From Trypanosoma brucei (lineage: Eukaryota), in contig CP000066.1 of the NCBI GenBank assembly GCA_000002445.1, positions 1,536,001-1,600,000 on the forward strand: a stretch of DNA of 64,000 bases, read 5' to 3'. Positions within the stretch are counted from its first letter, which is position 1, and each line of letters opens with the position of its first letter. The position numbers and the translations under genes were made by a program. Positions 32,735-62,457 of the stretch are shown here, piece after piece. Below the pieces are notes generated by a model. The model was not told the DNA's origin. It did not search any database and worked only from the letters and a program-made list of their open reading frames with translations.

Positions 32735-35700
32735 ATGTCGCGTGTTACCCTTTCCGCATCTCGCATGGAGAAAATAGTTAACGCATGGAGGAAAGTCCCT
32801 GATGCAGCGGAAGGTTGTTCAGTTATGTGTTGTGTATTTGGTGCGCTTACGCCTGAGACACTTGAAAACCAACGTGGGCAGGCAATGCTGCAATACCTTT
32901 TTACGTCGCTGAATACTGTGTGCAACGCTGCCTTGTTCTTTTCCTTTGATAAGCTACTGGTTGTACATTCCAACCTCAATGTTGAGCTGCCGCCCTCATC
33001 AGAGAGCTTTACCTACGCTTCTGCAACGTTGGACGAGAAGTTTGGTGAGATTCTCGCAGCATTTGTTGCTGATGCAAAAGTTGGAGTGTGTCAGAAGGAG
33101 TTGAACATACAAGAGGGTGATTTTGCACCAAAGCTAATTTCAGTCGTTCGAGAAATTGTTCCCGCTGAGCGTACGGTTGAAGTTGGACCCCTTCTGGGTG
33201 AGTTCCTTTTTGTGAAGGACGAGGCAGCACTTTCCTGTGTGGAGAAAGCGGCAGGACTTTGTAACGCTATATTCCGCCGCTCCGCCCGCGGGATGATTGA
33301 GTCGGAAATGCAAAAGAGTAATCCTAAAACGCTGAGCGCCTTGCGGGAGCAGTTAACGAAAACCCTCGAGGCACCAAACACCGTCATGGGTTTGGAAACA
33401 CTTGATGTCTCTCAGTTCTCAATTGCGTCCGGTTTGACACCATGTATTATGCACCGTGGGACTTATAACCCTCAAATTAGTGTCACAGAGGTGAGTACCC
33501 AACCGCTGCGGAGTGATGTCATCGTCGTCCGATACGGATTGAAGAATTGCGGCTACACCGCTTTCATCGCCCGTACGCTCATCGCGGAACGAAATGCCCC
33601 AAGCAACGTGAAGGACGTCTACAAGTTTGTGTACAACGTAACCGAAAAACTGTTAGAGCACCTTCGTGTGGGGACGCGTCTCAGTGCCGTGCATGAAGAA
33701 GTAATGAAGTATGCAACCACTACAGACGAAGCTCTTGCAAAGCACCTTCCCAAGTCTTTGGGTTTCTCGACTGGATTGTTGGTGCTTGAGGCACGCGGGA
33801 CAATATCTCAGAAAGGAACTGCAACAGTTGAAGACGGAATGGCTTTTGTAACTCGGGTTACTCTCGAAGGGGTGCCGGATGGTGAAGGCGGTACATTCGA
33901 CGTGGAGCTGTCCGACACAGTCACAGTAAAAGGTGGCGCTGCACAACTTAACACCAAAACATCACGTAAGCTTGAGGAAGTCCTCTACGATGACAGTGCA
34001 GAAGAGGAAACTGCATTCGAAACAAGTGCGCGGGACTTAAATAAGATAACACGGCAAGGACAGAGTAGCGTTCCACTACTCTCGCGGGAATCGGCACGAG
34101 AGGAAAAACTCAAGACGCTTTTAAGGGAACTACATGCGGAGTTGGCCGCTGCTGGTGGGAAAAAAGCCAAAACTGCCGTCTCAGAAGAGTTTCGTACGTA
34201 CGAAATTGCACGTCTTTCCTACGGCGACGTCATTCCTTACGCGAATGAAACCTCGTTCCCGGATGTGGCGCGTGGTGGTGGCATTTATGTAGACACGGAA
34301 AAGGAGGTGGCGTTCTTTCCCGTATGCGGGGGTGTGGCGGCGTTTCATGTCTCGACCATAAGTCGAGTTGACGTGAAGTTTGAAGGGAACCAAGTGGCGG
34401 GTATTTTCTCATTTCATTCGCTTCAGGAAGGAAATATCGCCTACCGTTTGAACCGCACTAAAATATTCGTCAAAGAGCTGACGTACCGTGCGCGCCGTGA
34501 CATCTTCACCGATGTGAAGATTGCCATTCAGGGTATTCAGCAACGCATCAAAAATAGAGATACGGAGCGACGCCGTGTTTCATTGAATGCTGGAGGTGCT
34601 CAGCTGCAAACAGTTCCTGATGCGATTCGGCTTCCACAGGTAAAGATTCGACCCCCAGCGACAACAGGACGTTATAACAAAGAATGCATTGGAAACTTGG
34701 AGATTCATCGGAATGGATTGCGCTTTTCATATATTGGTGGGGCACCAATTGACATGCATTTTGAAAACATCAAGCATGTTATATTCCAACCCGCTGTCAA
34801 TGCTGTTCGGGTTATTTACCACATCACCTTGAAGAAGGGTGTGGAGATTGCCCGGAAGAGTGTGGATGAGGTTCAGTTCGTTGCGGAGGTTATGGAAAGC
34901 AGCGAAACTGTTATGGCTGCGCGAAAAGGGTATGAAGAGGAAATTGCAGCGGAAGAGCGTGAACTTATGCGCATCAGTGACACAAACAAACAATTCCTGA
35001 AGTTTGCTCAGGCCGTTGAAAGGGTCAGCATGATCAAAACGCAAATACCTGCTAGCAATTTTTCCTTTGAAGGCGTTCATGCCAAGGGCTTAACAACATT
35101 CAAAGCCAATCGCGAAGTGTTATGGGCGATTATGGACCGGCCTCCGTTTACACAGCGTGTGGAGGATATCGAGGTTGTGTCGCTTGAGCGCGTTATACCT
35201 GGTGGATCCACTTTTGATGTGAACCTTATTTTCAAGGACTACAACAAACCGCCGGCGAGCATCACCACAATACCTCGTAGCAGCCTCGAGTCTCTAAAAG
35301 ACTGGTGTCTTGCAGCGCGACTTTACTACATGGAGACGAGCGTTAATCCAAACTGGAAGGTGGTACTGAAAACAATTATCGAAGACGAAGATTGGGATCC
35401 GTGGAGGCCAGGAGCCGGTTGGGCAGTACTCAATGATGATTTCGAGGGAGATGAAGAAGCCTCTGAAGACTCTGATTCAGATGATTCCACTTATGTTGAA
35501 GAAGAAGATGAAACCGATGAGACGGGGAGTTCCTTTCTTGACGATGAGGAGAGTGAACCCGAGTCCAGTGACGAAGAGGACAGTGAAAGTGTGTTGAGTT
35601 GGGACGAAATGGAGCGTCGTGCGGAGCAGCATGACCGGCAGCGCGGATACGGCTCTGATGATGATGATCGGCCTCGCAAGAGACCCCGCACGTCTTCAGG

Positions 35701-35803
35701 CGCTTCCAGCAACCGAAGGCCGCATCCGCCTCCACAACTCCCAAAAAAGCAGAGTCGGTTGCCTCCTATGGGATCAGCAGTGCCGCCACCGCGCCGGTTT
35801 TAG
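32735..35803 (+). CDS. SPT16: FACT complex subunit SPT16.
   Basis: The protein is 1022 aa. Middle-domain matches to remembered SPT16: 'FHVSTISRVDVKFEGN' versus 'FHISTIKN', and 'IDMHFENIKHVIFQPAVNAVRVIYHITLKKGVEIARKSVDEVQFVAEVMESSETV' versus '[55 protein letters not shown]'. The C-terminal tail is strongly acidic ('EGDEEASEDSDSDDSTYVEEEDETDETGSSFLDDEESEPESSDEEDSE'). Confidence 0.8.
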   Translation: MSRVTLSASRMEKIVNAWRKVPDAAEGCSVMCCVFGALTPETLENQRGQAMLQYLFTSLNTVCNAALFFSFDKLLVVHSNLNVELPPSSESFTYASATLDEKFGEILAAFVADAKVGVCQKELNIQEGDFAPKLISVVREIVPAERTVEVGPLLGEFLFVKDEAALSCVEKAAGLCNAIFRRSARGMIESEMQKSNPKTLSALREQLTKTLEAPNTVMGLETLDVSQFSIASGLTPCIMHRGTYNPQISVTEVSTQPLRSDVIVVRYGLKNCGYTAFIARTLIAERNAPSNVKDVYKFVYNVTEKLLEHLRVGTRLSAVHEEVMKYATTTDEALAKHLPKSLGFSTGLLVLEARGTISQKGTATVEDGMAFVTRVTLEGVPDGEGGTFDVELSDTVTVKGGAAQLNTKTSRKLEEVLYDDSAEEETAFETSARDLNKITRQGQSSVPLLSRESAREEKLKTLLRELHAELAAAGGKKAKTAVSEEFRTYEIARLSYGDVIPYANETSFPDVARGGGIYVDTEKEVAFFPVCGGVAAFHVSTISRVDVKFEGNQVAGIFSFHSLQEGNIAYRLNRTKIFVKELTYRARRDIFTDVKIAIQGIQQRIKNRDTERRRVSLNAGGAQLQTVPDAIRLPQVKIRPPATTGRYNKECIGNLEIHRNGLRFSYIGGAPIDMHFENIKHVIFQPAVNAVRVIYHITLKKGVEIARKSVDEVQFVAEVMESSETVMAARKGYEEEIAAEERELMRISDTNKQFLKFAQAVERVSMIKTQIPASNFSFEGVHAKGLTTFKANREVLWAIMDRPPFTQRVEDIEVVSLERVIPGGSTFDVNLIFKDYNKPPASITTIPRSSLESLKDWCLAARLYYMETSVNPNWKVVLKTIIEDEDWDPWRPGAGWAVLNDDFEGDEEASEDSDSDDSTYVEEEDETDETGSSFLDDEESEPESSDEEDSESVLSWDEMERRAEQHDRQRGYGSDDDDRPRKRPRTSSGASSNRRPHPPPQLPKKQSRLPPMGSAVPPPRRF

Positions 35804-36762: not shown

Positions 36763-37698
36763 ATGGCTGCAACACCTTACAGGTTTCGGTTGTCTTCACA
36801 GTGCAGCCACATAAGGCGTCATGTGTGTAGACGGTTGATTACACCACAGTTATCTGTGAGGACATGTGCTACGGGAACGGAATCATCAAACGGTGCTCGT
36901 TTAATCGAGGTGATGGAATCTCCAATTGAGAATATTAAAATTCTTTCCATGAACAACGCTCCAGCGAATGTTCTATCGTCAGCCATGATAAAGGAGATGC
37001 TTAGTTCGATCAGTGAAGTATGCAACCCAGAGAAAGGATGCTGCAAGGGTATCGTGTTAACATCGTCTCTCCCTAATGTGTTTTGTAATGGACTTGATCT
37101 TCAATTATTGATCGATAAATTGCCTTACGATTCTTTTTCATCCTACTGGAAGCAACTTCAGATGCTTTACATCACTCTCAACACGCTTCCGGTTCCTGTC
37201 GTTGCAGCTATAAACGGAGATGCTACGGGTTTTGGATGTATTATGGCTCTGTCTACTGATTATAGAGTTATGGCCGAGAAAGCAGAAGAGGGGGGAGGCA
37301 AACAATTAAAAATTGGTGTTGATACGGTTCGATGTGGATTGGCAGTTCCACCTTGCTTTGGTGCGGTTGTGGCTCACACGGTTGGATATCGTGCATGTGA
37401 AATGTTTCTTCAGCGTGGTGTGATTCTTTGTGCTGCTGAGGCTGAAAATGCGGGTCTTGTAGATGAAACGGTGGAAAGGGCTGATGAGGTTCTTGTGCGT
37501 GCTTTGGATATGGCAGAAAACCTGTCCGGAGGACCCCCGTGGTCTTTTTGGTTGGTAAAAGACGCTTCACGCAAGGCGTTTATGGCCCCCCTTTGTACGC
37601 AAGCCCTTCGTGATGCCGATTGTGCAAACTTTTACGAGTTTATCAGCAACACGGAGGTGCGACGTGATATGAGAGCGTACATTGCAGGTAGTGCGTAG
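36763..37698 (+). CDS. Enoyl-CoA hydratase/isomerase (crotonase) family protein, probably mitochondrial.
   Basis: The crotonase-fold signature is present: 'GIVLTSSLPNVFCNGLDLQLL...LPVPVVAAINGDATGFGCIMALSTDYRVMAE'. The N-terminus is presequence-like ('MAATPYRFRLSSQCSHIRRHVCRRL'). The protein is 311 aa. Confidence 0.6.
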   Translation: MAATPYRFRLSSQCSHIRRHVCRRLITPQLSVRTCATGTESSNGARLIEVMESPIENIKILSMNNAPANVLSSAMIKEMLSSISEVCNPEKGCCKGIVLTSSLPNVFCNGLDLQLLIDKLPYDSFSSYWKQLQMLYITLNTLPVPVVAAINGDATGFGCIMALSTDYRVMAEKAEEGGGKQLKIGVDTVRCGLAVPPCFGAVVAHTVGYRACEMFLQRGVILCAAEAENAGLVDETVERADEVLVRALDMAENLSGGPPWSFWLVKDASRKAFMAPLCTQALRDADCANFYEFISNTEVRRDMRAYIAGSA

Positions 37699-37985: not shown

Positions 37986-39623
37986 ATGGTGGAAATCACT
38001 GAACTCGCAAAAGACATCTCCGAGAGGTTACGAAATGGGTCTTACGAGTGCGTTATTTGCTCCAACGCGGTTTATCTACGAGATAAACTTTGGTCGTGTA
38101 CTGTCTGCTACGGTGTTGTGCACATGCCGTGCGTAAGATCTTGGGTAAAGGTTCAGGTTGAGGAGCGGGAGAAGCGTGATGCCACTGCTGGTGGTTCCTC
38201 CGCTTCTTCTATTTCCCTCAATGAGTTTCGCTGCCCTATCTGCCAAGCTCTAACACCTGTTTCGGCCGTAGCGGAGTTTAGTTGTTTCTGTGGAAAGGTG
38301 TGTAACCCAACTCCGGATCCCTTACTTGTCCCTGGTTCATGTGGCGACACATGTGGACGCCGTCGTAAGGACGAGTTGTGTCCCCACGCCTGCACGCTTA
38401 TGTGTCATCCAGGTCCTTGTACTCCATGTCAACTGACACGTACACAATCATGTTTCTGTGGAAAGACGAGCAAAACTGTGGGGTGCTCTAGTGGAATTCA
38501 TGGCTTTGAGTGTGAAGGTATTTGTGGGAAACTGCGTGAGTGTGGAAAGCATAACTGTGGTGTCCCGTGTCATGAAGGGCCTTGTCCCGTGTGCACTATT
38601 CTTTCTACAGATTCGTGTTATTGTGGTGCTACGAAGCGAACTCAGCGCTGTGGCGAAAGCGGGCCGTTTCCATGTGGAACCCCGTGCTCAAAAATTCTTG
38701 ATTGTGGCAACCACCGATGTCTTTCCAAATGTCATAAGGACGCGTGTGAGCCCTGCTTTCGGACCCCTGAGCGTATGGTATTTTGTCCTTGTGGGAAGGT
38801 GCGACTGCAGCAACTGTTGAATTCGCCCAGGAAATCGTGTTTGGATCCTATTCCCTCCTGCGGGTTGGTGTGTGAAGGTTTTTTACCATGCGGTCATACC
38901 TGCTCAGATGTGTGCCACGAAAGTCCCACATGTCCACCATGCACAAAATTAGTTTCGATGAAATGCGGTTGCGGATCGCAGAATTATCAAATCTACTGCT
39001 TTTTCACATATTTGCCACAGGGTGAATGGAAAGCCGCCGCTGAAAGGTCCGGTCTCAGTAAGGATAAAATTATTTCTCACTTTCCTCCGGTGTGCAAAAA
39101 ACCTTGTCGCAAGCATTTATCGTGTGGTAAACATACGTGCAAAGAGAACTGTTGCACCAATGAGGATCACACATGTTACAAAATCTGTACGAAACGCCTC
39201 TCTTGTGGAACGCACAGCTGCGGCCAATTATGCCATAAAGGTCTCTGTCTGCCATGTTCCGTGGCATCTTATGATCGTCTCTACTGCCGCTGCCGTCGAA
39301 CTTGGGTGGAGCCTCCGGTGCCATGTGGAACAAAACCTCCAAACTGCAGTCATGAATGCATCGTTCCCCGTCCTTGTGGGCATCCGGCCAACCACCCGTG
39401 TCATATTGAAAACGAATGTCCCGTTTGTGTTGTTCCCGTTGAGAAGAAGTGCGGCTCGCATGCCACAGTGATTCCATATTATTTACCCTGCTACAGAGAG
39501 TCGGTGTCATGTGGTAAGAAGTGTGGAAAGTTGATGAGCTGCTGTGGAAAACCGTGTGGGAAGATATGCCACATCGGGAAGTGCGAACATAAGTGTCAAA
39601 CACCATTTCCTGCACTTGAGTGA
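37986..39623 (+). CDS. NF-X1-type zinc-finger protein (NFX1/shuttle-craft family) with an N-terminal RING/PHD-like finger.
   Basis: The N-terminal finger is 'YECVICSNAVYLRDKLWSCTVCYGVVHMPCVRSW'. It is followed by at least 6 tandem NF-X1 fingers (C-x-H-x-C-x3-C-H/C...): 'CGKHNCGVPCHEGPCPVC', 'CGNHRCLSKCHKDACEPC', 'CGHTCSDVCHESPTCPPC', 'CGKHTCKENCC', 'CGTHSCGQLCHKGLCLPC', 'CGHPANHPCHIENECPVC'. Confidence 0.75.
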   Translation: MVEITELAKDISERLRNGSYECVICSNAVYLRDKLWSCTVCYGVVHMPCVRSWVKVQVEEREKRDATAGGSSASSISLNEFRCPICQALTPVSAVAEFSCFCGKVCNPTPDPLLVPGSCGDTCGRRRKDELCPHACTLMCHPGPCTPCQLTRTQSCFCGKTSKTVGCSSGIHGFECEGICGKLRECGKHNCGVPCHEGPCPVCTILSTDSCYCGATKRTQRCGESGPFPCGTPCSKILDCGNHRCLSKCHKDACEPCFRTPERMVFCPCGKVRLQQLLNSPRKSCLDPIPSCGLVCEGFLPCGHTCSDVCHESPTCPPCTKLVSMKCGCGSQNYQIYCFFTYLPQGEWKAAAERSGLSKDKIISHFPPVCKKPCRKHLSCGKHTCKENCCTNEDHTCYKICTKRLSCGTHSCGQLCHKGLCLPCSVASYDRLYCRCRRTWVEPPVPCGTKPPNCSHECIVPRPCGHPANHPCHIENECPVCVVPVEKKCGSHATVIPYYLPCYRESVSCGKKCGKLMSCCGKPCGKICHIGKCEHKCQTPFPALE

Positions 39624-40074: not shown

Positions 40075-42864
40075 ATGATAGAATATGCGTGTGGTTGGCT
40101 ACACGCGCCTGTCAGTAGTTTCAACAGTAGGGGGGAAACCACTTCAAGCAGTGAAGGAGCAACGTGGGGTATCGCATTGGGAAGATTCGGCCCTACCGCC
40201 AAGTGTTCTCTTGTGAGAGTACTGGCAGTGATAGTTTCAGGGTATTATTTTTTTGTTGGTTTATGTTTAGTTAGTGCCGCAAAATGCATATGTACCGACT
40301 ACTGGTCTATGATCGAGGGTTTAACAAACGTAGCGAATGTGTCCGAGCTAAGGGAAGTTACCAACCTCACTGACCAGCTTAGATATTCACTCATAGTTGT
40401 TTCATGTGTGGCTCTGTTCGTTCATCTCGCTATTTCTGTTGTCGGAGTGAGGCACATCCGTAGTTTGTTCATGCAACTCGATGCAAATGTCGAGGCGTTG
40501 CACCGTGTTGCCGATGCGTTGGCAGTGCCACTCAACGGTGATGCAACGGGTACTATTGATGTGAATCCGAAGCAGTCCTTTTCCCATGCAAAAAGTTGTA
40601 AAGGGATTCAAAACGCTGCAACACCTGAAATGGCGAATGACATGCTTATGCTTTTGCACCAACTCCGTGGGTTACTTCCCGATTCCACATTTGAAAAGGA
40701 GCTAACAGACGTCGCTGTGCGGCAGTGTAACGGTGCCAAACTTCAATGTGAAAAGGCGAATCTTCCCGTTGGTTCCAAACTTGAGGCCCACTCACCGCGT
40801 GTTATGTCTCAGTTCAGAGTTTCACGGAGAACTGCAGCGGGAATGGTTCGAAATCGGGAGATTTTGGAACACGGTGGCACTGGCACGACCTTCAGGAAAA
40901 GGAGGGTCACGGTGGTGGTTGTTTGCCTCTCCGACTTTGCGCATCAAGTTGAGGAGGATTTGGAACATTGTCTTCATTTTTCCCGACAATTTCTTTCTGT
41001 TGTAACTCAAATTGTTGAGAGGTATGGCGGTATCATTGCGAGTGTAGCACCTAACAAGGTTGTTGTGACATGGAATGCCTTTACGGATTCTCCCCGTCAC
41101 GCACAAAACGGAATGCAATGTGCCTGTGATGTACTTGTTGCGCTCCAACCATTTACACAAGGTTTGAGTGTGTCACCGTCTCTTAAGTTGTTTCCGACCA
41201 TTGTTGCTACTTCAGGGTTTGTTATGGCAGGAACGATCAGAGTTTCTGACCATGAGGACGATGTCTTAAGTGTTTACGGGAATTGTATTTCCCTGAGTGA
41301 GGAACTTCCATCACTATTAGGTGCGCTGAGAGTAAGGTGTGCGTGTGTTGGGGCGCTGGCACATTTTTGCCCAAGCAACTTTTCGTGTATTCCACGAGAC
41401 TGCGTAACAGATGCCAATAACAAAAGGCACATCATTTATGAGATGCAAGATAAGGCTCTCGCACAGCGCCGGCGTCATGTTGAGGCATTTCAAGCATTTC
41501 AGCGAGGAGAACATGGTGTCGCACACCATCTCTACACTCGAATACACGAAGAAACACGTAGTGATTGGAATGCCTTGCGTATGAGTCAGATTTGTTATTA
41601 CTTGGAAGAAAGCCACAGCGTTTACGCCCAACGCTTTCCGGAGTGGCAACTGTTCCCTGTTGAAAGAGAGCACTCATGTGTTAATGAACTTCAACTTGGT
41701 AGAAGGGCGTACGGGTTTATGAAATGCGAGGCTTCACCTGTTGAGGATCATATTCGCCGTGCCATATTAAAGCAAACAGATACACGTGCCCTTCCGCGCT
41801 CTTATGGACGAAATGAGGAGGAGTCGTACCGAACGCCTGAAGTCGCAAAATCAGATAAGTGTTTGATAGTTAAATGTAACTCGTCTTCTTTGCGGTATGT
41901 CACGGAGTTTTGCGACCGTCAAGGGTTGGTGTTTCGCATGTCTAAACAAGTATTAGGCACTGGGGCGTGTGGTGTTGCATTCTTGGGTTTGTCACAAACT
42001 GGTGCACTGGTTGCCATTAAGGAAATCGAACTTCCATTAAGGACTCGGGCACAAAACAGTAACTTAAGCGACCTAAACCGTAGGAGATTACGTCGGAAGG
42101 GAATTCAAGTGGAAAGTGCAATGGAGAAAACTTTGGATGGTATTATCAATGAAGTAAGTTTACTCTCCCGACTGCGTCATGCAAACATAATGGGTTACAT
42201 ATCGTCTGCCATTTGGGGTAACAAATTGCTGATTGTAATGGAGTTGGGTAGTGGTGGGAGTCTCTACGATCTCATACAAAAGTTTGGAAGTATAAAAGAG
42301 AGTCGTGCGAGACGATACCTCCGCGATGTATTGCAAGGACTGGAGTATTTGCATCGCAAGAATATTGTGCACCGGGACATTAAACCTCAGAATGTTCTGC
42401 TACTTGAGACCGGTTTATGTAAACTTACTGATTTTGGTACTTCACAAAACTTGCAGAAAATCGCCAACAGTTGTGCACCTGAGGGAACTCCCCCTTATAC
42501 GGCACCTGAAGCAGCGAGAGGAAAAGCGGAAAAGGCATCTGATATTTGGAGTTTTGGCATTATGATGTTGTATGTTTTAAGTGGTTCCCTCCCATGGCCA
42601 AACATGAACCAAATGACTTCTCATGCATTTTTCTACAAGGTGGGACATGTGGAAAGTTTTATGCCATGTGTAGATGATAAAATTTCTCACGATGCGAAGC
42701 AAATCGTCAAGCGTTGCTGCCAACGCGACCCGAAAGAACGGGCCACCGCACGGGAACTTTTGAATAATTCATTTTTTAACTGCACGGACACTTCTACGAG
42801 TTGCCTCGTTAAGGACTGGCCATCCTCTTGTGGGAATATCTCGAGAAGCGAATTTCATTTGTAG
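40075..42864 (+). CDS. Multi-pass membrane protein with a central, degenerate class III nucleotidyl-cyclase homology domain and a C-terminal STE-group Ser/Thr protein kinase domain.
   Basis: The listed start at 40072 is TTG, and the ATG is at 40075. N-terminal hydrophobic helices are present ('VLAVIVSGYYFFVGLCLVSAA', 'LIVVSCVALFVHLAISVVGV'). The cyclase-like block runs from about 40890 to 41340: 'RVTVVVVCLSDFAHQVEE...GGIIASVAPNKVVVTWNAF...HAQNGMQCACDVL...FPTIVATSGFVMAGTI...VYGNCISLSEEL'. It follows the class III pattern V-F-DI-GFT / KTIGD-YM / HA / RIGIHsG-V-AG / Gd-VN-ASRMES, but with substitutions at catalytic positions. The kinase motifs are 'GTGACGVAF', 'VAIKEI', 'HRDIKPQN', 'DFGTS' and 'GTPPYTAPE'. 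Confidence 0.7.
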   Translation: MIEYACGWLHAPVSSFNSRGETTSSSEGATWGIALGRFGPTAKCSLVRVLAVIVSGYYFFVGLCLVSAAKCICTDYWSMIEGLTNVANVSELREVTNLTDQLRYSLIVVSCVALFVHLAISVVGVRHIRSLFMQLDANVEALHRVADALAVPLNGDATGTIDVNPKQSFSHAKSCKGIQNAATPEMANDMLMLLHQLRGLLPDSTFEKELTDVAVRQCNGAKLQCEKANLPVGSKLEAHSPRVMSQFRVSRRTAAGMVRNREILEHGGTGTTFRKRRVTVVVVCLSDFAHQVEEDLEHCLHFSRQFLSVVTQIVERYGGIIASVAPNKVVVTWNAFTDSPRHAQNGMQCACDVLVALQPFTQGLSVSPSLKLFPTIVATSGFVMAGTIRVSDHEDDVLSVYGNCISLSEELPSLLGALRVRCACVGALAHFCPSNFSCIPRDCVTDANNKRHIIYEMQDKALAQRRRHVEAFQAFQRGEHGVAHHLYTRIHEETRSDWNALRMSQICYYLEESHSVYAQRFPEWQLFPVEREHSCVNELQLGRRAYGFMKCEASPVEDHIRRAILKQTDTRALPRSYGRNEEESYRTPEVAKSDKCLIVKCNSSSLRYVTEFCDRQGLVFRMSKQVLGTGACGVAFLGLSQTGALVAIKEIELPLRTRAQNSNLSDLNRRRLRRKGIQVESAMEKTLDGIINEVSLLSRLRHANIMGYISSAIWGNKLLIVMELGSGGSLYDLIQKFGSIKESRARRYLRDVLQGLEYLHRKNIVHRDIKPQNVLLLETGLCKLTDFGTSQNLQKIANSCAPEGTPPYTAPEAARGKAEKASDIWSFGIMMLYVLSGSLPWPNMNQMTSHAFFYKVGHVESFMPCVDDKISHDAKQIVKRCCQRDPKERATARELLNNSFFNCTDTSTSCLVKDWPSSCGNISRSEFHL

Positions 42865-49999: not shown

Positions 50000-51472
50000 A
50001 TGCGCATTGGGAAGTATTGCGTCGTTTTTCTGCTAGTGTGGACGCAAGCAACCAAGAGAAGCGTGGGAAAACCCACAAATATTATAAATCAGGAAGAATT
50101 TAAAGCATTATGTGCTTTCGTGAATTTGGCGAATGAATCGGTAGACTACGCAGGTCTCGAAGCCGAAATCAGGGACGCGGCAGCAGATATCGGGGCTATT
50201 TTTCTTGCGTCGCAGCAAGAAAGCATTTCGAAATTGAGGGAGCAAATTGAGATCTGGCGCGAGGTTGAAGCAACCAATAACGGAGGGAACAACCGAGGCA
50301 TTAAAAAGTGGAGTGTTTGGGAGGAAGCGAGAAGAAAGCTAATAGATGAAGGCGGAACAAAATATGTGCAATGGGTTGAATTGGGCTTGAGTGATGCTGA
50401 GAAGCAGAAGATAGAGGAAGCTATGGATGAGACAGTCAAATGCATGGCGGAGGAGAACGGCTTGTGGGACACTTTGCGGGAAATGCCAGTAAAAGGAAGT
50501 ATAACAAAAGCAATATTCGGATCCAGGGAAAGGCAAGTGCAGATTATGAAAGGACGCGGTAGCCGCGAAACCGCTTGTGGCAGGGGATTATTCCCTGGAG
50601 ACTGGGCGGGCACGGCATTGAGCGCTGACTTACTGTGCCTGTGCGCCGCTACGGAACGCAGGGCCGCCACCAACGAGGGTTGCTGCACAGGATGCGAGAC
50701 AGGGGGAAATGGCGTTGCTTGGGATCCAAGGGTGCATAGTGAGGAGAGGTGGAATTTGCTTAGAAGTAAATGTGAAAAGGTCAGCAGCGGTACTCCCCTT
50801 TCAAGTCGAGCGCTGTCGGTTGCGGAGAGTACATTTTTCAACCAACTGAAGATCTCAAAAGGGTCAACATCAGGAAGACCAACGCTACTGGGTAAATTTG
50901 GAACTAGCTTTTCCGTGGGTTGTACCGGGGAAATCACCGAGAAAGAGGGACGTTGCGTTCGGTATAGCCACAGCCATGTTGACAGAAATAATCCAGCGCT
51001 ACCCTGGCTTACAAACTTAAGGGAGGCGGCAAATGCAGTAGATCAGTTGAATGCAGTTGATACAAAGCTCAAACATCTACGCGTTGGTATAGCCACCTTC
51101 CACACGAAGCATGTTGATTTTAAATCGCGTGAAAAAGGAAACGGCGGCGACCCTATTCTGGGAAGCGGTGGCGTAGAGGGTGAAGTTAACACCAATGAGT
51201 CAACGAAGGCGAACACAAACGATGGTAGAGCAAAAAAGGCTGGTGAAAGCAAAAGAACACCTGTCGACAACATTTCACATAAATGCGAAGGTTATAGGCA
51301 GGGAAAAACATGCAAAAGTCGAAAAGTGGAAACGGAATGTGACTGGGAGGAGGGTACATGCGTTGGCTCTGCCAGTGAGCCAGTCACTTCGCCTCTGAGG
51401 CAAAGACCACCTACTTCAGGGAAGGTAAACTCCATTAGATGCTCACTGAGTTTGTTTTTAATACTATTATAG
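50000..51472 (+). CDS. VSG-like (variant surface glycoprotein or VSG-related) gene, 490 aa, apparently intact.
   Basis: A signal peptide 'MRIGKYCVVFLLVWTQATKRSVG' is present. The N-terminal domain has the 'ALCAFVNLA' motif and a B-type-like Cys cluster 'LLCLCAATERRAATNEGCCTGCETGG'. The C-terminal domain has four Cys ('CEGYRQGKTCKSRKVETECDWEEGTCVGS'), resembling VSG C-terminal domains of the 'CKWEG-TCKDS' type. A hydrophobic tail 'IRCSLSLFLILL' is compatible with a GPI signal. The size is typical for a VSG. I could not find the canonical VSG 3'UTR 16-mer (TGATATATTTTAACAC) downstream. Confidence 0.55.
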   Translation: MRIGKYCVVFLLVWTQATKRSVGKPTNIINQEEFKALCAFVNLANESVDYAGLEAEIRDAAADIGAIFLASQQESISKLREQIEIWREVEATNNGGNNRGIKKWSVWEEARRKLIDEGGTKYVQWVELGLSDAEKQKIEEAMDETVKCMAEENGLWDTLREMPVKGSITKAIFGSRERQVQIMKGRGSRETACGRGLFPGDWAGTALSADLLCLCAATERRAATNEGCCTGCETGGNGVAWDPRVHSEERWNLLRSKCEKVSSGTPLSSRALSVAESTFFNQLKISKGSTSGRPTLLGKFGTSFSVGCTGEITEKEGRCVRYSHSHVDRNNPALPWLTNLREAANAVDQLNAVDTKLKHLRVGIATFHTKHVDFKSREKGNGGDPILGSGGVEGEVNTNESTKANTNDGRAKKAGESKRTPVDNISHKCEGYRQGKTCKSRKVETECDWEEGTCVGSASEPVTSPLRQRPPTSGKVNSIRCSLSLFLILL

Positions 51473-56951: not shown

Positions 56952-57944
56952 ATGGAGAACAAATATTTAGTGTGGTGCATGTTTTTTTGTTTAACGGTTG
57001 TGGGGGGCAAAGCTAATGCAGTGAAAACAACGCTAAAGAAAGAAACGAATTGCCACACAACTGTTAAAGCACTGTTCAACAAACGTGAAAACTGTCATGA
57101 TCTGGCCTCCGATGCAACGAAAATAAATGAGGATGTTGACATCGGAACAGATGCAGATAGATGGACTGCTTGCACATGGTTAGAATATGATAAGAGGCGT
57201 ACGGAGACACAATGCATATTGAGGTTTAACAACACATATGGAGAGAAATTAGTATGCACCTACGAAACAAAGGGCAATCGCCAAGACCTAAGTTGCAAAC
57301 CAGAGGGTCGTTGCGAAGACGCTCGCGAGCGGTACCTTTTAGGGGAAGAAGGATGTCCGAAGCCTGCACCACGTGAAGAACCAAAAAGAAACAAAACCGA
57401 AAGGTGTCTTGATGAGGTTTATGGGTCATTCAGCGGTGACCAGGAGTGTGCGAAACTTAAAATAGGAAGCGAGGTCGCCGAGCAAATTATATTCAGGGAG
57501 AACGGAGATGACAAAACACCAGAATGTATAGAAGCAAGTGGCCCCCCAGAGTCGAAAGTGGTTGGAGAAGCATGCGTAATAAAGTTGCGAACCGAGCCAC
57601 ACCCATCAGAATATATTTGCAAAATGGAGGGTTCTGGTGAGGAAAGGAAAATAAAATGCACAAGAGAAACATCGAAAACAGTTCCTCAACCTACGACCAC
57701 AAGGAAGAGACGAGGCAGTACTGGATCCATGCGCAAAAGAAGTGACGACGGTGGTAACACTGAGGTCACCCTGAAAGAAGATAAAGACAAAACACAAGAT
57801 GAGGATGAAGGCCAAAAAGAAGAAAGAAAAGAAGAAAGCGGTGAAGAAACTGGTACAGCAAAAGCTCGAATCAAAAGCAAAACTTATTGGAAATCAAATA
57901 ATCCTATTATCATGCTTTTAACACTTTCGTTATTGTTGCTTTAA
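56952..57944 (+). CDS. Cys-rich surface protein with a signal peptide and a C-terminal GPI-anchor-like signal. It is the divergent first member (330 aa) of the tandem family that follows.
   Basis: It is about 45-50% identical to the downstream copies. Conserved blocks are 'TQCILRFNNTYGEKLVCTYETKGNRQDLSC' (versus 'TQCILKFENAEGNRIACTYETEGGQGNVSC') and 'PESKVVGEACVIKLRTEPHPSEYICKMEGSGEERKIKC'. The C-terminus 'WKSNNPIIMLLTLSLLLL' is identical. Confidence 0.7.
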   Translation: MENKYLVWCMFFCLTVVGGKANAVKTTLKKETNCHTTVKALFNKRENCHDLASDATKINEDVDIGTDADRWTACTWLEYDKRRTETQCILRFNNTYGEKLVCTYETKGNRQDLSCKPEGRCEDARERYLLGEEGCPKPAPREEPKRNKTERCLDEVYGSFSGDQECAKLKIGSEVAEQIIFRENGDDKTPECIEASGPPESKVVGEACVIKLRTEPHPSEYICKMEGSGEERKIKCTRETSKTVPQPTTTRKRRGSTGSMRKRSDDGGNTEVTLKEDKDKTQDEDEGQKEERKEESGEETGTAKARIKSKTYWKSNNPIIMLLTLSLLLL

Positions 57945-58767
57945 TACTGTTTAATAATAAACGGTAATGTAAACTGTTTGGAAGAAAGTATGCTTTTAAC
58001 GGAGAAGGGAAGTGAGTGTATCAAAACATTTTTCTTGTAAGACATACATTAAGGGAACATTTTTATGTTTTTTTTTTGTCACGCGTCACTGCTGTAAAAA
58101 AAACTTCTTGCGCTCAAGTTGTATCGAAAGTATTGAATTTTCAACGATGTTGTTCGGTGGGGAAGGTAAGGGGAATAGGATATATAGTTGTGTCGGGGAC
58201 GGCGTTCTGTTTGTTGAAAGGGGTAAAGAGAGGAAAAAACCCTACACCGGGTGAAAGTAACTGACTGATGAAGTTCGTTTGGATCGATAGACAAGTGGAA
58301 CTCGCCGCAAAAAGGTTGTAACAGCATTTAACCGGCACATGCGGCTTAGCGTTTTAGGTTGAGAAATGCACGTATAAAGGCACGGATGCTCAGGAAATAC
58401 CCTTATTTCTGATAACATAATTGGACGCTAAGCTAGAGAAGGCACAACACCAGATTCGAGAATACAACAGAAAAATGACGGGCGATGGCACCGACGAAGA
58501 GGAACAATTGAAGCGGGTCGCTGAAATCGATAACATCAATGCCCACGGCAGCCTCCTCTCGACGCGCGGACAAAACAAGAAAAAAAAATGCAGCTTCAGA
58601 AAAAAAAAAAAATGTTTCTTTGGGAAACCACTTGAAACTGTTGAGGAAAAGAGGGTTTGCCACGCCCAGCCGCTAATGATAATGTGAAATGGAAATTTAC
58701 AGTATCCATTTAACCTACAATATCATGATTCCTACACCTTTATCATTCTTCCTTTAGCGAAAACAAA

Positions 58768-59829
58768 ATGAGGAAACAACATGTCATATACTACGTATTT
58801 TTCTGCTTAGGAGCCATAGGAAGCAGAGGAGAGACAGAACCAATAACAATACAAAAAGGAACGGAGTGCCACAAAGCATTGGAAACAGCGTTCACCACGC
58901 CCAAAAACTGTGAGAATGTAAGCACAGCGATAAGCGAAATGCCTGAAAATGTTAGCATTGAAACATTCCCGGGGGCATGGACCGTGTGTCAATTCATGGA
59001 AAACGAAAAAGAAAGCACAGTCACGCAATGCATTTTGAAGTTCGAAAACGCAGAGGGAAATCGAATAGCGTGCACCTACGAAACCGAGGGCGGACAAGGA
59101 AACGTAAGCTGCACACAGGAAGTGGATGCTCCGGTGGCTTATCATCCATACTGTGAGGGAGCCGAATACGATTATACTTATCATGACGAAAGCCACGGTC
59201 ATGGGAGCGGGGGCTATGAGCGGCGTTGTCCCGAGCCGGGTCCACGTCCTGCGCCACTGAATGAAGAAGCTCACAGGTGTGTTGCCGACGTCCTTGTTGC
59301 ATTTGGTGGTCACCATGAATGTGCAAAACTCTACGGCACAGATCCGGCACTCGATCCTGAAGATGTCATCTTCGGCGAGAAAGGAGATGACAAACCAAAA
59401 TGCACGGAGGCAGATCGACCCGAGGTGTCCACATTGGTTGGAGAAGCATGCGAGGTAAAATTGCGGACCAAACCAGAACCAGACGAATACTTGTGTAAGG
59501 TAGAAACCTCTAACGGTAAAAGAAAAATAAAGTGTACCCCCAAAACACCAAAAACAATTCCTCAACAAGCGGACACAGTAAAGAAACCAGATACCACTGA
59601 ATCCATGCAGAAAAAAGCTGACGATGGTGGTAAAACTGAGGTAACACCAGAAGTAAAAGATGGGCAAAAAGATGAAAAGGGTGGGAAAGAAAGGCAAGAA
59701 AAGCAAAAAATGGAAAATAATACTGGAAAAAGCAATGAAGCAGCGACAAACACTAAAACGCAGGCTTCTTCTTGGAAATCAAATAATCCTATTATCATGT
59801 TTTTAACACTTTCTTTATTGTTGCTTTAG
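58768..59829 (+). CDS. Cys-rich, probably GPI-anchored surface protein, 353 aa (tandem copy 2).
   Basis: A signal peptide 'MRKQHVIYYVFFCLGAIGSRG' is followed by two internally homologous Cys modules. Module A ends 'TQCILKFENAEGNRIACTYETEGGQGNVSC', and module B ends 'EACEVKLRTKPEPDEYLCKVETSNGKRKIKC'. A Lys/Glu/Thr-rich stalk and a hydrophobic tail 'SWKSNNPIIMFLTLSLLLL' follow. N-glycosylation sequons are NVS x2 and NNT. Confidence 0.75.
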   Translation: MRKQHVIYYVFFCLGAIGSRGETEPITIQKGTECHKALETAFTTPKNCENVSTAISEMPENVSIETFPGAWTVCQFMENEKESTVTQCILKFENAEGNRIACTYETEGGQGNVSCTQEVDAPVAYHPYCEGAEYDYTYHDESHGHGSGGYERRCPEPGPRPAPLNEEAHRCVADVLVAFGGHHECAKLYGTDPALDPEDVIFGEKGDDKPKCTEADRPEVSTLVGEACEVKLRTKPEPDEYLCKVETSNGKRKIKCTPKTPKTIPQQADTVKKPDTTESMQKKADDGGKTEVTPEVKDGQKDEKGGKERQEKQKMENNTGKSNEAATNTKTQASSWKSNNPIIMFLTLSLLLL

Positions 59830-60645
59830 TATCATTTAATAAACGGTAATGTAGACTGTTTTGAAGAAAGTATGCTTTTAACGGAGAAGGGAAGTGAGTG
59901 TATCAAAACATTTTTCTTGACAGACGTACATTAAGGGAACATTTTTATTGTTTACTTGCCATATTGCACTGCTAAAAAACTTCTCGTGCTGGAGTTGCGT
60001 GCGAAGTATTAGATTTCTTCACCGATTCTTTTTTGTAGCGAAGGTAAGGGGAATAGGATATGTAGTTGTGTCGGGGACGGCGTTCTGTTTGTTGAAAGGG
60101 ATAGCAGGAAGAGAAAACTCTACCCCGGGTGAAAGCAACTGACTTGTGCAGTTCGTTCGGATCGATAGACAGGTGGAAATCGCCGCAAAAAGGTTGTAAC
60201 AGCATTTGATCGGCACATGTGGTGTAGCGTTTTGGGTTGAGAAATGCACGCATAAAGGCACGGATGCTCAGGAAATACCCTTATTTCTGATAACATAATT
60301 GGACGCTAAGCTAGAGAAGGCACAACACCAGATTCGAGAATACAACAGAAAAATGACGGGCGATGGCACCGACGAAGAGGAACAATTGAAGCGGGTCGCT
60401 GAAATCGATAACATCAATGCCCACGGCAGCCTCCTCTCGACGCGCGGACAAAACAAGAAAAAAAAATGCAGCTTCAGAAAAAAAAAAAAATGTTTCTTTG
60501 GGAAACCACTTGAAACTGTTGAGGAAAAGAGGGTTTGCCACGCCCAGCCGCTAATGATAATGTGAAATGGAAATTTACAGTATCCATTTAACCTACAATA
60601 TCATGATTCCTACACCTTTATCATTCTTCCTTTAGCGAAAACAAA

Positions 60646-61707
60646 ATGAGGAAACAACATGTCATATACTACGTATTTTTCTGCTTAGGAGCCATAGGAA
60701 GCAGAGGAGAGACAGAACCAATAACAATACAAAAAGGAACGGAGTGCCACAAAGCATTGGAAACAGCGTTCACCACGCCCAAAAACTGTGAGAATGTAAG
60801 CACAGCGATAAGCGAAATGCCTGAAAATGTTAGCATTGAAACATTCCCGGGGGCATGGACCGTGTGCCAATTCATGGAAAACGAAAAAGAAAGCACAGTC
60901 ACGCAATGCATTTTGAAGTTCGAAAACGCAGAGGGAAATCGAATAGCGTGCACCTACGAAACCGAGGGCGGACAAGGAAACGTAAGCTGCACACAGGAAG
61001 TGGATGCTCCGGTGGCTTATCATCCATACTGTGAGGGAGCCGAATACGATTATACTTATCATGACGAAAGCCACGGTCATGGGAGCGGGGGCTATGAGCG
61101 GCGTTGTCCCGAGCCGGGTCCACGTCCTGCGCCACTGAATGAAGAAGCTCACAGGTGTGTTGCCGACGTCCTTGTTGCATTTGGTGGTCACCATGAATGT
61201 GCAAAACTCTACGGCACAGATCCGGCACTCGATCCTGAAGATGTCATCTTCGGCGAGAAAGGAGATGACAAACCAAAATGCACGGAGGCAGATCGACCCG
61301 AGGTGTCCACATTGGTTGGAGAAGCATGCGAGGTAAAATTGCGGACCAAACCAGAACCAGACGAATACTTGTGTAAGGTAGAAACCTCTAACGGTAAAAG
61401 AAAAATAAAGTGTACCCCCAAAACACCAAAAACAATTCCTCAACAAGCGGACACAGTAAAGAAACCAGATACCACTGAATCCATGCAGAAAAAAGCTGAC
61501 GATGGTGGTAAAACTGAGGTAACACCAGAAGTAAAAGATGGGCAAAAAGATGAAAAGGGTGGGAAAGAAAGGCAAGAAAAGCAAAAAATGGAAAATAATA
61601 CTGGAAAAAGCAATGAAGCAGCGACAAACACTAAAACGCAGGCTTCTTCTTGGAAATCAAATAATCCTATTATCATGTTTTTAACACTTTCTTTATTGTT
61701 GCTTTAG
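60646..61707 (+). CDS. Cys-rich, probably GPI-anchored surface protein, 353 aa (tandem copy 3, identical to copy 2).
   Basis: The protein is identical to the 58768-59829 product. The complete 1878-bp unit, 5' and 3' flanks included, appears identical at the nucleotide level. Confidence 0.75.
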   Translation: MRKQHVIYYVFFCLGAIGSRGETEPITIQKGTECHKALETAFTTPKNCENVSTAISEMPENVSIETFPGAWTVCQFMENEKESTVTQCILKFENAEGNRIACTYETEGGQGNVSCTQEVDAPVAYHPYCEGAEYDYTYHDESHGHGSGGYERRCPEPGPRPAPLNEEAHRCVADVLVAFGGHHECAKLYGTDPALDPEDVIFGEKGDDKPKCTEADRPEVSTLVGEACEVKLRTKPEPDEYLCKVETSNGKRKIKCTPKTPKTIPQQADTVKKPDTTESMQKKADDGGKTEVTPEVKDGQKDEKGGKERQEKQKMENNTGKSNEAATNTKTQASSWKSNNPIIMFLTLSLLLL

Positions 61708-62457
61708 TATCATTTAATAAACGGTAATGTAGACTGTTTTGAAGAAAGTATGCTTTTAACGGAGAAGGGAAGTGAGTGTATCAAAACATTTTTCTTGACA
61801 GACGTACATTAAGGGAACATTTTTATTGTTTACTTGCCATATTGCACTGCTAAAAAACTTCTCGTGCTGGAGTTGCGTGCGAAGTATTAGATTTCTTCAC
61901 CGATTCTTTTTTGTAGCGAAGGTAAGGGGAATAGGATATGTAGTTGTGTCGGGGACGGCGTTCTGTTTGTTGAAAGGGATAGCAGGAAGAGAAAACTCTA
62001 CCCCGGGTGAAAGCAACTGACTTGTGCAGTTCGTTCGGATCGATAGACAGGTGGAAATCGCCGCAAAAAGGTTGTAACAGCATTTGATCGGCACATGTGG
62101 TGTAGCGTTTTGGGTTGAGAAATGCACGCATAAAGGCACGGATGCTCAGGAAATACCCTTATTTCTGATAACATAATTGTACGCTAAGCTAGAGAAGGCA
62201 CAACACCAGATTCGAGAATACAACAGAAAAGTGAAGACGGGTGATTTAAGCGGGTCACTGAAATCAAGATCATTAATACAGACGGCAGCATCAGTGGAGG
62301 GGGAAATATTTTTTTTAATACTTGAAACTGTTGAGGAAAAGAGGGTTTGCCACGCCCAGCCGCTAATGATAATGTGAAATGGAAATTTACAGTATCCATT
62401 TAACCTACAATATCATGATTCCTACACCTTTATCATTCTTCCTTTAGCGAAAACAAA

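Follow-up and report, generated by a model that had tools for sequence, protein, structure and literature searches.

To our knowledge, trypanosomatids have no receptor tyrosine kinases, GPCRs, or heterotrimeric G proteins, which makes the few membrane kinases that they possess leading candidates for sensing the environment. The receptor guanylyl cyclases (RGCs) of animals are laid out as an extracellular domain, a transmembrane (TM) segment, a kinase-homology domain, and a cyclase. In the ESAG4/GRESAG4 receptor cyclases of trypanosomes, which are active enzymes, a large extracellular domain is joined to the cyclase by one TM helix, and a kinase is absent. The RGC group is absent from trypanosomatids (PMC1266030).

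A third arrangement has been described in Trypanosoma brucei. Jensen et al. 2021 (PMC8519429; Fig 1, text, and Table S1) reported Tb927.3.5650 as a TM kinase with a 'nucleotide cyclase domain' and catalogued the same architecture in Tb927.9.12400, Tb927.10.1910, and RDK1 (Tb927.11.14070). In that study, V5-tagged Tb927.3.5650, over-expressed as a C-terminally tagged copy, was located at the ER in bloodstream forms, and several TM kinases of T. brucei with cyclase-like domains were observed there too. In their kinome-wide RNAi table, Jones et al. 2014 list Tb927.3.5650 as STE without a family and the paralogues as STE/STE11; knock-down of Tb927.3.5650 had no effect on the fitness of the monomorphic bloodstream forms used. 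In the three paralogues, too, TM segment(s) and a cyclase-like domain are combined with an STE kinase at the C-terminus, but these proteins are larger (131-168 kDa). RDK1, which controls life-cycle differentiation as a known repressor of the bloodstream-to-procyclic transition, has an extracytoplasmic sensor-like domain, whereas Tb927.3.5650 has only an exposed loop of 33 aa, no STE family assignment, and no phenotype.

An initial annotation made from the DNA alone had regarded the TM-cyclase-like-kinase fusion as a different signalling design and had suggested consulting kinome surveys. The design is already catalogued for exactly this gene by Jensen et al. 2021. Since the architecture has been published and the knock-down has no phenotype, the present analysis adds detail to a known domain combination and is not a discovery. 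What it adds to the work of Jensen et al. is the residue-level competence of the cyclase domain, a conserved helical extension behind it, and a link between degeneracy and kinase fusion; no paper with a residue-level analysis of this cassette was found in the literature searched.

Identification of Tb927.3.5650 and its domain order

The window analysed is a stretch of 64,000 nucleotides of T. brucei contig CP000066.1. The ORF at 40075-42864 on the + strand starts with ATG at 40075, ends with its stop codon at 42864, and encodes 929 aa, exactly as initially annotated. The encoded protein was 100% identical to T. brucei TREU927 XP_844155.1/Q57VH8, a chromosome 3 gene product. Published cloning primers for Tb927.3.5650 mapped to 40075-40097 (0 mismatches) and 42832-42861 (2 mismatches), and a published RNAi primer mapped to 41775-41794. 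Because these primers match, we concluded that the ORF is Tb927.3.5650. Its features are as follows.

40075..42864, + strand: complete ORF of Tb927.3.5650 (929 aa and stop codon); translation, protein identity, primer matches
40213..40281, + strand: TM helix 1, aa 47-69; Kyte-Doolittle, TMHMM
40282..40380, + strand: inter-TM loop of 33 aa (aa 70-102) with two N-x-S/T sequons (NVS, NLT); sequence
40381..40449, + strand: TM helix 2, aa 103-125; Kyte-Doolittle, TMHMM
40450..40893, + strand: poorly conserved juxtamembrane linker, aa 126-273; orthologue identity, pLDDT
40894..41454, + strand: degenerate class III cyclase homology domain (CHD), aa ~274-460; phmmer, profile, AF2, Foldseek
41455..41787, + strand: conserved post-CHD extension, aa 461-571; alignment, AF2, orthologue identity
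41944..42777, + strand: protein kinase domain of the STE group, aa 624-901; Pfam, PDB matches, motifs

All peptides quoted in the initial annotation were found in the cyclase-like block (VTVVVVCLSDFAH at aa 278-290, TWNAF at 332-336, HAQNGMQCACDVL at 342-354, ATSGFVMAGTI at 378-388, and VYGNCISLSEEL at 400-411) and in the kinase (GTGACG at 628-633, VAIK at 646-649, HRDIKPQN at 766-773, DFG at 786-788, and APE at 810-812). The proposed order, in which a degenerate class III cyclase domain lies behind the TM helices and ahead of a complete Ser/Thr kinase, was also borne out. The neighbouring genes, all on the same strand, encode an enoyl-CoA hydratase, an NF-X1 zinc finger protein, SPT16, and a VSG_B-domain protein; they are unrelated, as expected in a trypanosome polycistronic unit, and genomic context was therefore set aside as a functional clue.

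Membrane anchor and linker

Using the Kyte-Doolittle scale with a 19-aa window and a threshold of 1.6, two hydrophobic segments were detected at aa 44-70 (mean up to 2.2) and aa 101-128 (up to 2.62). These agree with the published TMHMM helices of Tb927.3.5650 at aa 47-69 and 103-125 (Table S1 of Jensen et al. 2021, PMC8519429), so that the N-terminal TM helices of the initial annotation are upheld. Because there are two TM helices and the kinase lies in the cytosol, the 33-aa loop between them is predicted to be the sole part on the lumenal/extracellular side. The linker that follows was only 10-30% identical (20-aa windows) to those of the T. congolense, T. vivax, and T. cruzi orthologues, and its modelled stretch had low pLDDT. 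No transducer-like or coiled-coil helix directly N-terminal to the CHD was confidently modelled by AF2.

A class III cyclase fold between membrane and kinase

The initial annotation had recognized a class III cyclase pattern in the middle block and had suggested a domain scan. In the single-sequence Pfam search, the kinase was recovered (Pkinase, E=8.7e-58, aa 624-901), but PF00211 (gathering threshold 21.9 bits) gave no match to the full protein or to the isolated block even at E<=10; nor did PF00211 match any kinase-fused relative at E<=0.01. Two word-indexed searches were uninformative: with the N-terminal 622 aa as query, the T. brucei protein itself was the sole hit, and with the family alignment, the only hits were three unrelated cyclases.

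In contrast to Pfam, the profile and structure methods yielded clear relationships. An exhaustive phmmer search of a 1.84-billion-protein library with the query retrieved PF00211-positive proteins at E values of 1e-6 to 1e-4. When a family profile of 13 sequences was searched against the PDB, it matched 2W01 (Cya2 guanylyl cyclase) at E=1.2e-12, photoactivated cyclases (PACs) at 1e-9 to 1e-7, and CyaC at 3e-5. As the single-sequence AlphaFold model of aa 231-495 was unusable (pLDDT 41.9), an MSA-based model (AF2) was used instead, in which the CHD core had a pLDDT of 85-97 and adopted the beta-alpha-beta-beta-alpha-beta cyclase fold. The best 50 Foldseek matches of this model were all class III cyclases (probability 1.00, target-normalised TM 0.73-0.80), with an rmsd of ~3-4 A over ~195 residues. 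The silence of Pfam alone was thus rejected as a refutation of cyclase homology, and we concluded that aa ~274-460 form a CHD of class III, with a similarity far above what chance would give, in agreement with the pattern first noticed.

The domain has the same fold as Cya2, photoactivated cyclase, CyaC, CyaB, and sAC (2W01, 4YUS, 5M27, 1WC0, 3R5G, and 4CLF), and shares with class III cyclases G319, the W-N pair, H342, G381, G386, and G402. Unlike them, it has all catalytic residues replaced, falls below the PF00211 threshold, and is fused to a eukaryotic kinase.

Loss of the catalytic residues

Across the catalytic columns, the intact cyclases retrieved with the query read D-(E/K)-G-D-R-(G/T)-N-R-K, whereas Tb927.3.5650 reads C-S-P-N-T-S-S-E-A (C284, S323, P326-N327, T375, S399, S406, E410, and A447). 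C284 occupies the first metal Asp column, which is D in 33 of 38 intact cyclases, and N327 occupies the second (D in 36/38). The transition-state Asn and Arg are S406 and E410, the phosphate Arg and the base-specifying Lys/Glu are likewise replaced (T375, A447, S323), and the F-x-D-x-x-G-F phosphate-binding turn is without its Gly (CLSDFAH). The initial annotation had placed TWNAF at the K-T/S-I-G-D position; this register is wrong, as the K-x-x-G-D column corresponds to S323-V-A-P-N327 (SVAPN) and TWNAF is the next beta-strand, whose W-N is common to intact subfamily cyclases (W in 33/38, N in 32/38). Loss of either metal Asp abolishes catalysis in class III enzymes. Judged from its residues, the CHD of Tb927.3.5650 is a catalytically dead pseudo-cyclase, and the initial suggestion of a pseudo-cyclase is borne out by these replacements.

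The loss extends to the relatives. All hits of sufficient length with a degenerate catalytic set were fused to a kinase. Hits with an intact set were all PF00211-positive and had no kinase. The first metal Asp was kept in none of the 12 kinase-fused relatives covering that column. At the second metal position, Asn in Tb927.3.5650, 8 of 13 kinase-fused relatives had Asp, and the transition-state Arg was kept in 4 of 13. Because the catalytic loss is common to all kinase-fused relatives, the fusion of a pseudo-cyclase to a kinase appears to be old and maintained. The replacement residues vary within this clade (C/S/N/T/R/Y at 284, S/E/N/D/T at 406, and E/A/D/R at 410), and the structural core is kept (G319, W333-N334, H342, G381, G386, G402, and L414). 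This variation argues for a structural role and against the old pocket having become a conserved site for a new ligand.

A conserved extension and an apparently active STE kinase

The region behind the CHD consists of three confident helices (aa ~465-513, TPR-like), a P-E-W-Q-L-F motif (aa 522-527), and the helix ASPVEDHIRRAIL (aa 553-565). The three helices correspond to residues 211-259 of the AF2 model (pLDDT 87-94). In the alignment the extension is conserved across the kinase-fused family, with F472 invariant and a consensus of PxWQxF, and longer kinase-fused relatives (1267-1659 aa) also carry a degenerate CHD with the extension. Identity among Trypanosoma orthologues was 37-57% for the extension and 30-60% for CHD and extension together among T. 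brucei, T. congolense, T. vivax, and T. cruzi, compared with 10-25% for the linker; CHD and extension are under purifying selection in these four species. A confident TPR assignment for the helices was rejected, the hints being sub-threshold (TPR_14 at E=0.0045 in one relative, P0016, and TOM70 at E~8).

The kinase domain was the best-conserved region of the protein (50-93% identity to orthologues). Its GxGxxG, VAIK, HRDxKxxN, DFG, and APE motifs are all intact, and an insert of ~35 aa lies between VAIK and helix C; the kinase is apparently active, as far as its motifs indicate. The top PDB relatives were PAK1/2, ASK1/MAP3K5, and MST3/4/STK25 (E~1e-32), and the T. cruzi orthologue is annotated as 'STE group'. 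The initial annotation had called the kinase STE-type and MAP3K-like. The STE group is supported by the PDB relatives and by Jones et al. 2014, but membership in STE11 is not established, as similarity to STE20 and STE11 was equal (PAK2 3e-32, ASK1 5e-32 in the PDB search).

Proposed role of the pseudo-cyclase

Head-to-tail dimerization is obligatory for class III cyclase domains. Because of this, and because the kinase-fused clade has kept the structural core and not the active site, we favour with moderate confidence the reading that Tb927.3.5650 is a two-pass ER/endomembrane STE kinase whose pseudo-cyclase serves as a dimerization or regulatory scaffold. The cytosolic part would then comprise the dead CHD and a short TPR-like helical extension upstream of the apparently active kinase. 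The pseudo-cyclase could pair two kinase domains at the membrane, which would lead to trans-autophosphorylation or regulated activation, and the CHD itself would produce no cAMP or cGMP. Against this reading stand the absence of a confidently modelled transducer-like or coiled-coil helix just before the CHD, the normal fitness of bloodstream forms under RNAi, and the origin of the ER location from an over-expressed tagged copy.

Alternatively, the degenerate CHD might be an allosteric sensor that binds ATP, GTP, cAMP, cGMP, or another small molecule and relays this to the kinase. The fold and the pocket-forming core are retained, at the second metal position Tb927.3.5650 has Asn and 8/13 kinase-fused relatives have Asp, and the transition-state Arg persists in 4/13; the regulatory pseudo-sites of heterodimeric class III cyclases may serve as a precedent, and forskolin, for one, binds to such a non-catalytic pseudo-site in mammalian adenylyl cyclase. 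We nevertheless consider a sensor unlikely, since in Tb927.3.5650 the first Asp, the phosphate Arg, the transition-state Arg, and the Lys are all lost, the turn CLSDFAH has no phosphate-binding Gly, and the residues found in their place vary within the kinase-fused clade. For the last reason, the cyclic-nucleotide-type sensing raised in the initial annotation found no support. That the CHD keeps a residual or non-canonical activity, making the protein a bifunctional cyclase-kinase, is extremely improbable. In its favour are the fold and the name 'serine/threonine protein kinase/class 3 adenylate cyclase' that the JGI pipeline gives to a distant relative, and we rejected it on the catalytic-residue table: both metal Asp (C284, N327), the transition-state Asn/Arg (S406, E410), and the base-recognition residues are replaced, and PF00211 scores nothing even at E<=10.

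The dimer might also be mixed, with the pseudo-cyclase binding Tb927.9.12400, Tb927.10.1910, RDK1, or a true receptor adenylate cyclase and thereby coupling the kinase or modulating cyclase output. Class III heterodimers are known, such as mammalian C1/C2 and soluble guanylyl cyclase alpha/beta, and by analogy such pairing may occur here. T. brucei has three or four such kinases, several of them seen at the ER (PMC8519429). Against this, the family profile has no detectable affinity to trypanosome receptor cyclases, and these are surface or flagellar proteins while Tb927.3.5650 was seen at the ER (PMC8519429). On balance, a mixed dimer seems improbable, and the dimerization or regulatory scaffold remains the preferred reading.

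The initial annotation had compared the protein with ESAG4/GRESAG4. Both are membrane proteins of the same organism whose cytosolic part has the class III cyclase fold, but the comparison holds as an analogy only: structures of trypanosome receptor cyclases were absent from the PDB matches of the family profile even at E<=10. A derivation from ESAG4/GRESAG4 was therefore rejected, the relationship being distant, and the 33-aa exposed loop, the dead catalytic set, and the lack of a profile match place the protein outside that family. Like Tb927.3.5650, the RGCs of animals are membrane proteins that combine a kinase fold with a class III cyclase fold, one module of which is dead and regulatory. 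Tb927.3.5650 resembles their mirror image: in RGCs the kinase is dead and the cyclase is active and C-terminal, whereas here an apparently dead cyclase lies N-terminal to an apparently active kinase. More speculatively, and with rather low confidence, the dead CHD, TPR-like extension, PxWQxF motif, and STE kinase may form an ancient conserved regulatory cassette of kinetoplastids, and possibly of other protists, in which the pseudo-cyclase would be a ligand- or partner-gated dimerization switch for MAPK-type signalling and a functional mirror of RGCs. A cyclase module that is uniformly dead, conserved, and always linked to a kinase would shift the question from the making or sensing of cAMP to the regulation of a kinase by a pseudo-cyclase dimer.

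The residue at 327 is Asn here and Asp in some relatives, and some have Arg at 410; a weak nucleotide or metal contact may persist at these positions.

Identity of Tb927.3.5650 and its membrane and kinase regions

The gene under study is an uninterrupted ORF for a protein of 929 aa.
40075-42864, + strand: Tb927.3.5650, ATG at 40075, stop codon ending at 42864

Sequence comparison showed that its product is the same as T. b. brucei TREU927 XP_844155.1 (UniProt Q57VH8) at every residue, and near-identical copies were found in T. b. gambiense and T. b. equiperdum. The Tb927.3.5650 cloning primers of Jensen et al. 2021 (PMC8519429) matched the first sense codons (40075-40097, no mismatch) and, on the minus strand, the last ones (42832-42861, two mismatches), and the RNAi primer of Jones et al. 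2014 matched 41775-41794 of the window. Hence, from protein identity and primer positions, the ORF was assigned to Tb927.3.5650. The peptides quoted for this ORF in the initial annotation were all found in it in the order described. Its upstream neighbours are unrelated, housekeeping-type genes on the same strand.
32735-35803, + strand: SPT16/FACT gene
36763-37698, + strand: enoyl-CoA hydratase gene
37986-39623, + strand: NF-X1-type zinc-finger protein gene

Every large ORF of the window lies on the + strand, as would be expected of a single polycistronic unit.

A Kyte-Doolittle scan gave exactly two strongly hydrophobic segments, at aa 44-70 and 101-128; Jensen et al. 2021 (PMC8519429) had placed TM helices at 47-69 and 103-125 and had seen the V5-tagged protein at the ER of bloodstream forms. 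The loop between the segments carries two N-glycosylation sequons. As it is only 33 aa long, the protein is predicted to lack a sizeable extracytoplasmic sensor domain, and in this it would differ from RDK1, a paralogue with a cyclase-like domain and an STE kinase. Pfam identified a complete protein kinase domain (aa 624-901, + strand, E = 8.7e-58), with none of the motifs GTGACG, VAIK, HRDIKPQN, DFG and APE missing.

The middle block is a class III cyclase homology domain

PF00211 gave no match in a single-sequence Pfam scan of the protein even at E ≤ 10, and a single-sequence AlphaFold model of the middle block was uninformative (pLDDT 41.9). With aa 1-622 as query, an exhaustive phmmer search of 1.84 billion representative proteins yielded 51 matches, all converging on query residues ~270-570. 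Many were PF00211 proteins (their own PF00211 E values 1e-20 to 1e-27), in which the segment aligned to the query was the cyclase domain. An alignment of 13 kinase-fused relatives, i.e. those carrying both the cyclase homology domain (CHD) and a protein kinase, was then run as a profile against PDB sequences.

Matches of the kinase-fused profile in PDB
Cya2 guanylyl cyclase (2W01): E 1.2e-12
Photoactivated adenylyl cyclases: E 1e-9 to 1e-7
CyaC: E 3e-5
Rhodopsin guanylyl cyclases, CyaB and human soluble adenylyl cyclase: each E below 0.01

At E ≤ 10 this profile matched no chain of a trypanosome receptor cyclase, mammalian membrane cyclase or soluble guanylyl cyclase, so the comparison previously drawn with the ESAG4/GRESAG4 family serves as an analogy and reaches no further. 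The nearest intact cyclases belong to bacteria and to various protists, such as a dinoflagellate and a labyrinthulomycete; some of them are CHASE2-linked. AlphaFold2 supplied with the same alignment gave pLDDT 75 and pTM 0.72, with model residues ~20-260 at pLDDT 85-97. The best 50 Foldseek matches of this model in PDB were all class III cyclase catalytic domains (probability 1.00, target-normalised TM 0.73-0.80, rmsd ~3-4 Å over ~195 columns). Since the three approaches concur, we concluded that the class III cyclase homology is real and that the CHD spans aa ~274-460.

Loss of the catalytic residues

The matched regions of the 51 phmmer matches were aligned, and kinase-fused proteins were compared with intact cyclases column by column.

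Catalytic positions: intact cyclases; Tb927.3.5650
Metal Asp 1: D (33/38); C284
Base-specifying residue: E or K; S323
Gly of G-D: G (33/38); P326
Metal Asp 2: D (36/38); N327
Phosphate Arg: R; T375
Second base-specifying residue: G or T; S399
Transition-state Asn: N (30/38); S406
Transition-state Arg: R (30/38); E410
Lys: K; A447

Metal Asp 1 was retained in none of the 12 kinase-fused relatives covering that column. Five matches with the degenerate signature, first placed with the cyclases, were kinase fusions or short fragments, so that among the sampled matches the degenerate signature and kinase fusion always occur together. The kinase-fused clade keeps a structural core in common with intact cyclases (G319, W333-N334, H342, G381, G386, G402 and L414), and the replacements at its catalytic positions vary from member to member. 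Judged from these sequences, the CHD is an old, maintained pseudo-cyclase. The column comparison thus supported the earlier proposal of a pseudo-cyclase and corrected its register: K-x-x-G-D corresponds to S323-V-A-P-N327, and not to 'TWNAF' (332-336), which forms the following beta-strand and whose W-N is normal in this cyclase subfamily.

Post-CHD extension and conservation

The kinase-fused proteins remain conserved beyond the CHD, as far as about aa 571.
41455-41787, + strand: post-CHD helical extension, aa 461-571, conserved in all kinase-fused relatives

Three helices were modelled in it with high confidence (pLDDT 87-94, aa ~465-513), and these are followed by a P-x-W-Q-x-F motif, here PEWQLF (aa 522-527), and by a fourth helix at aa 553-565, ASPVEDHIRRAIL; hints of TPR-like character in the helices were all sub-threshold. 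Some intact cyclases, e.g. the phmmer matches P0019, P0021 and P0049, align with part of it (to query aa ~490-525). No description of the extension was found in the literature searched. Among orthologues from T. brucei, T. congolense, T. vivax and T. cruzi, identity was 7-35% in the N-terminus, TM hairpin and linker, 30-60% in the CHD plus extension, and 50-93% in the kinase.

An exhaustive search returned full-length orthologues from Trypanosoma species only, at 35-44% identity; among the more distant kinase-fused relatives were an Angomonas deanei protein and several in metagenomic or SRA assemblies. A Herpetomonas muscarum survey (PMC6872171) listed Tb927.3.5650 among kinases without an orthologue there. 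Considering both observations, we doubt that LmjF.21.0130, which is listed for L. major as orthologue of both Tb927.3.5650 and its paralogue Tb927.10.1910 (Jensen et al. 2021, Table S1, PMC8519429), is an orthologue of Tb927.3.5650, a gene that may be confined to Trypanosoma.

Possible role of the pseudo-cyclase

Our analysis established how the domains are ordered, that the CHD has the cyclase fold and a dead catalytic set, that the kinase motifs are intact, and that CHD and extension form a conserved cassette. Class III cyclase domains work as obligate dimers. Given this, and given that the clade conserves its core rather than the pocket, in which the replacements differ between members, we incline to the most economical interpretation: the pseudo-cyclase would serve as a scaffold that dimerises or regulates the kinase at an endomembrane.

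Two other roles, an allosteric one in which the CHD binds a ligand and heterodimerisation with paralogues or true cyclases, are each improbable, and residual cyclase activity in the CHD is very hard to credit. The architecture, earlier put forward as a different signalling design, proved to be catalogued already in the trypanosomatid kinome, and for this very gene, which lessens its interest. Parsons et al. 2005 had already counted ten TM kinases, with the STE group enriched; the kinome table of Jones et al. 2014 gives Tb927.3.5650 as 'STE' with the family blank, RNAi ratios of ~1.0 and the entry 'No LOF'; and Jensen et al. 2021 (PMC8519429) listed it as a TM kinase with a 'nucleotide cyclase domain' and, at 929 aa, as the smallest except LDK. 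Among the papers searched, none was found to discuss which catalytic residues such cyclase-like domains have kept or lost. What is new here is the residue-level and clade-level detail, which is useful, though no surprise to a specialist.

Other features of the window

Four tandem paralogous ORFs (330, 353, 353 and 354 aa) occupy 56952-63522 (+). ORFs 2 and 3 are 100% identical, and ORFs 4 and 1 share 84% and 39% identity with them, respectively. In each, the N-terminus resembles a signal peptide, the body is rich in Cys and the tail in Lys/Glu, and the C-terminus (NNPIIMFLTLSLLLL) is hydrophobic and looks like a GPI-anchor signal; Pfam matched neither of the two ORFs scanned, the one of 330 aa and the first of 353 aa. 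These are probably surface-protein genes. AT skew is strong in this region (0.2-0.29). A chromosome-internal 490-aa ORF at 50000-51472 (+) matched the VSG_B domain (E = 3.6e-71) and is preceded by unusually low GC (0.355-0.39 across ~42-50 kb). At 11572-18963 (+), a very long ORF of 2463 aa encloses an antisense ORF of 438 aa.
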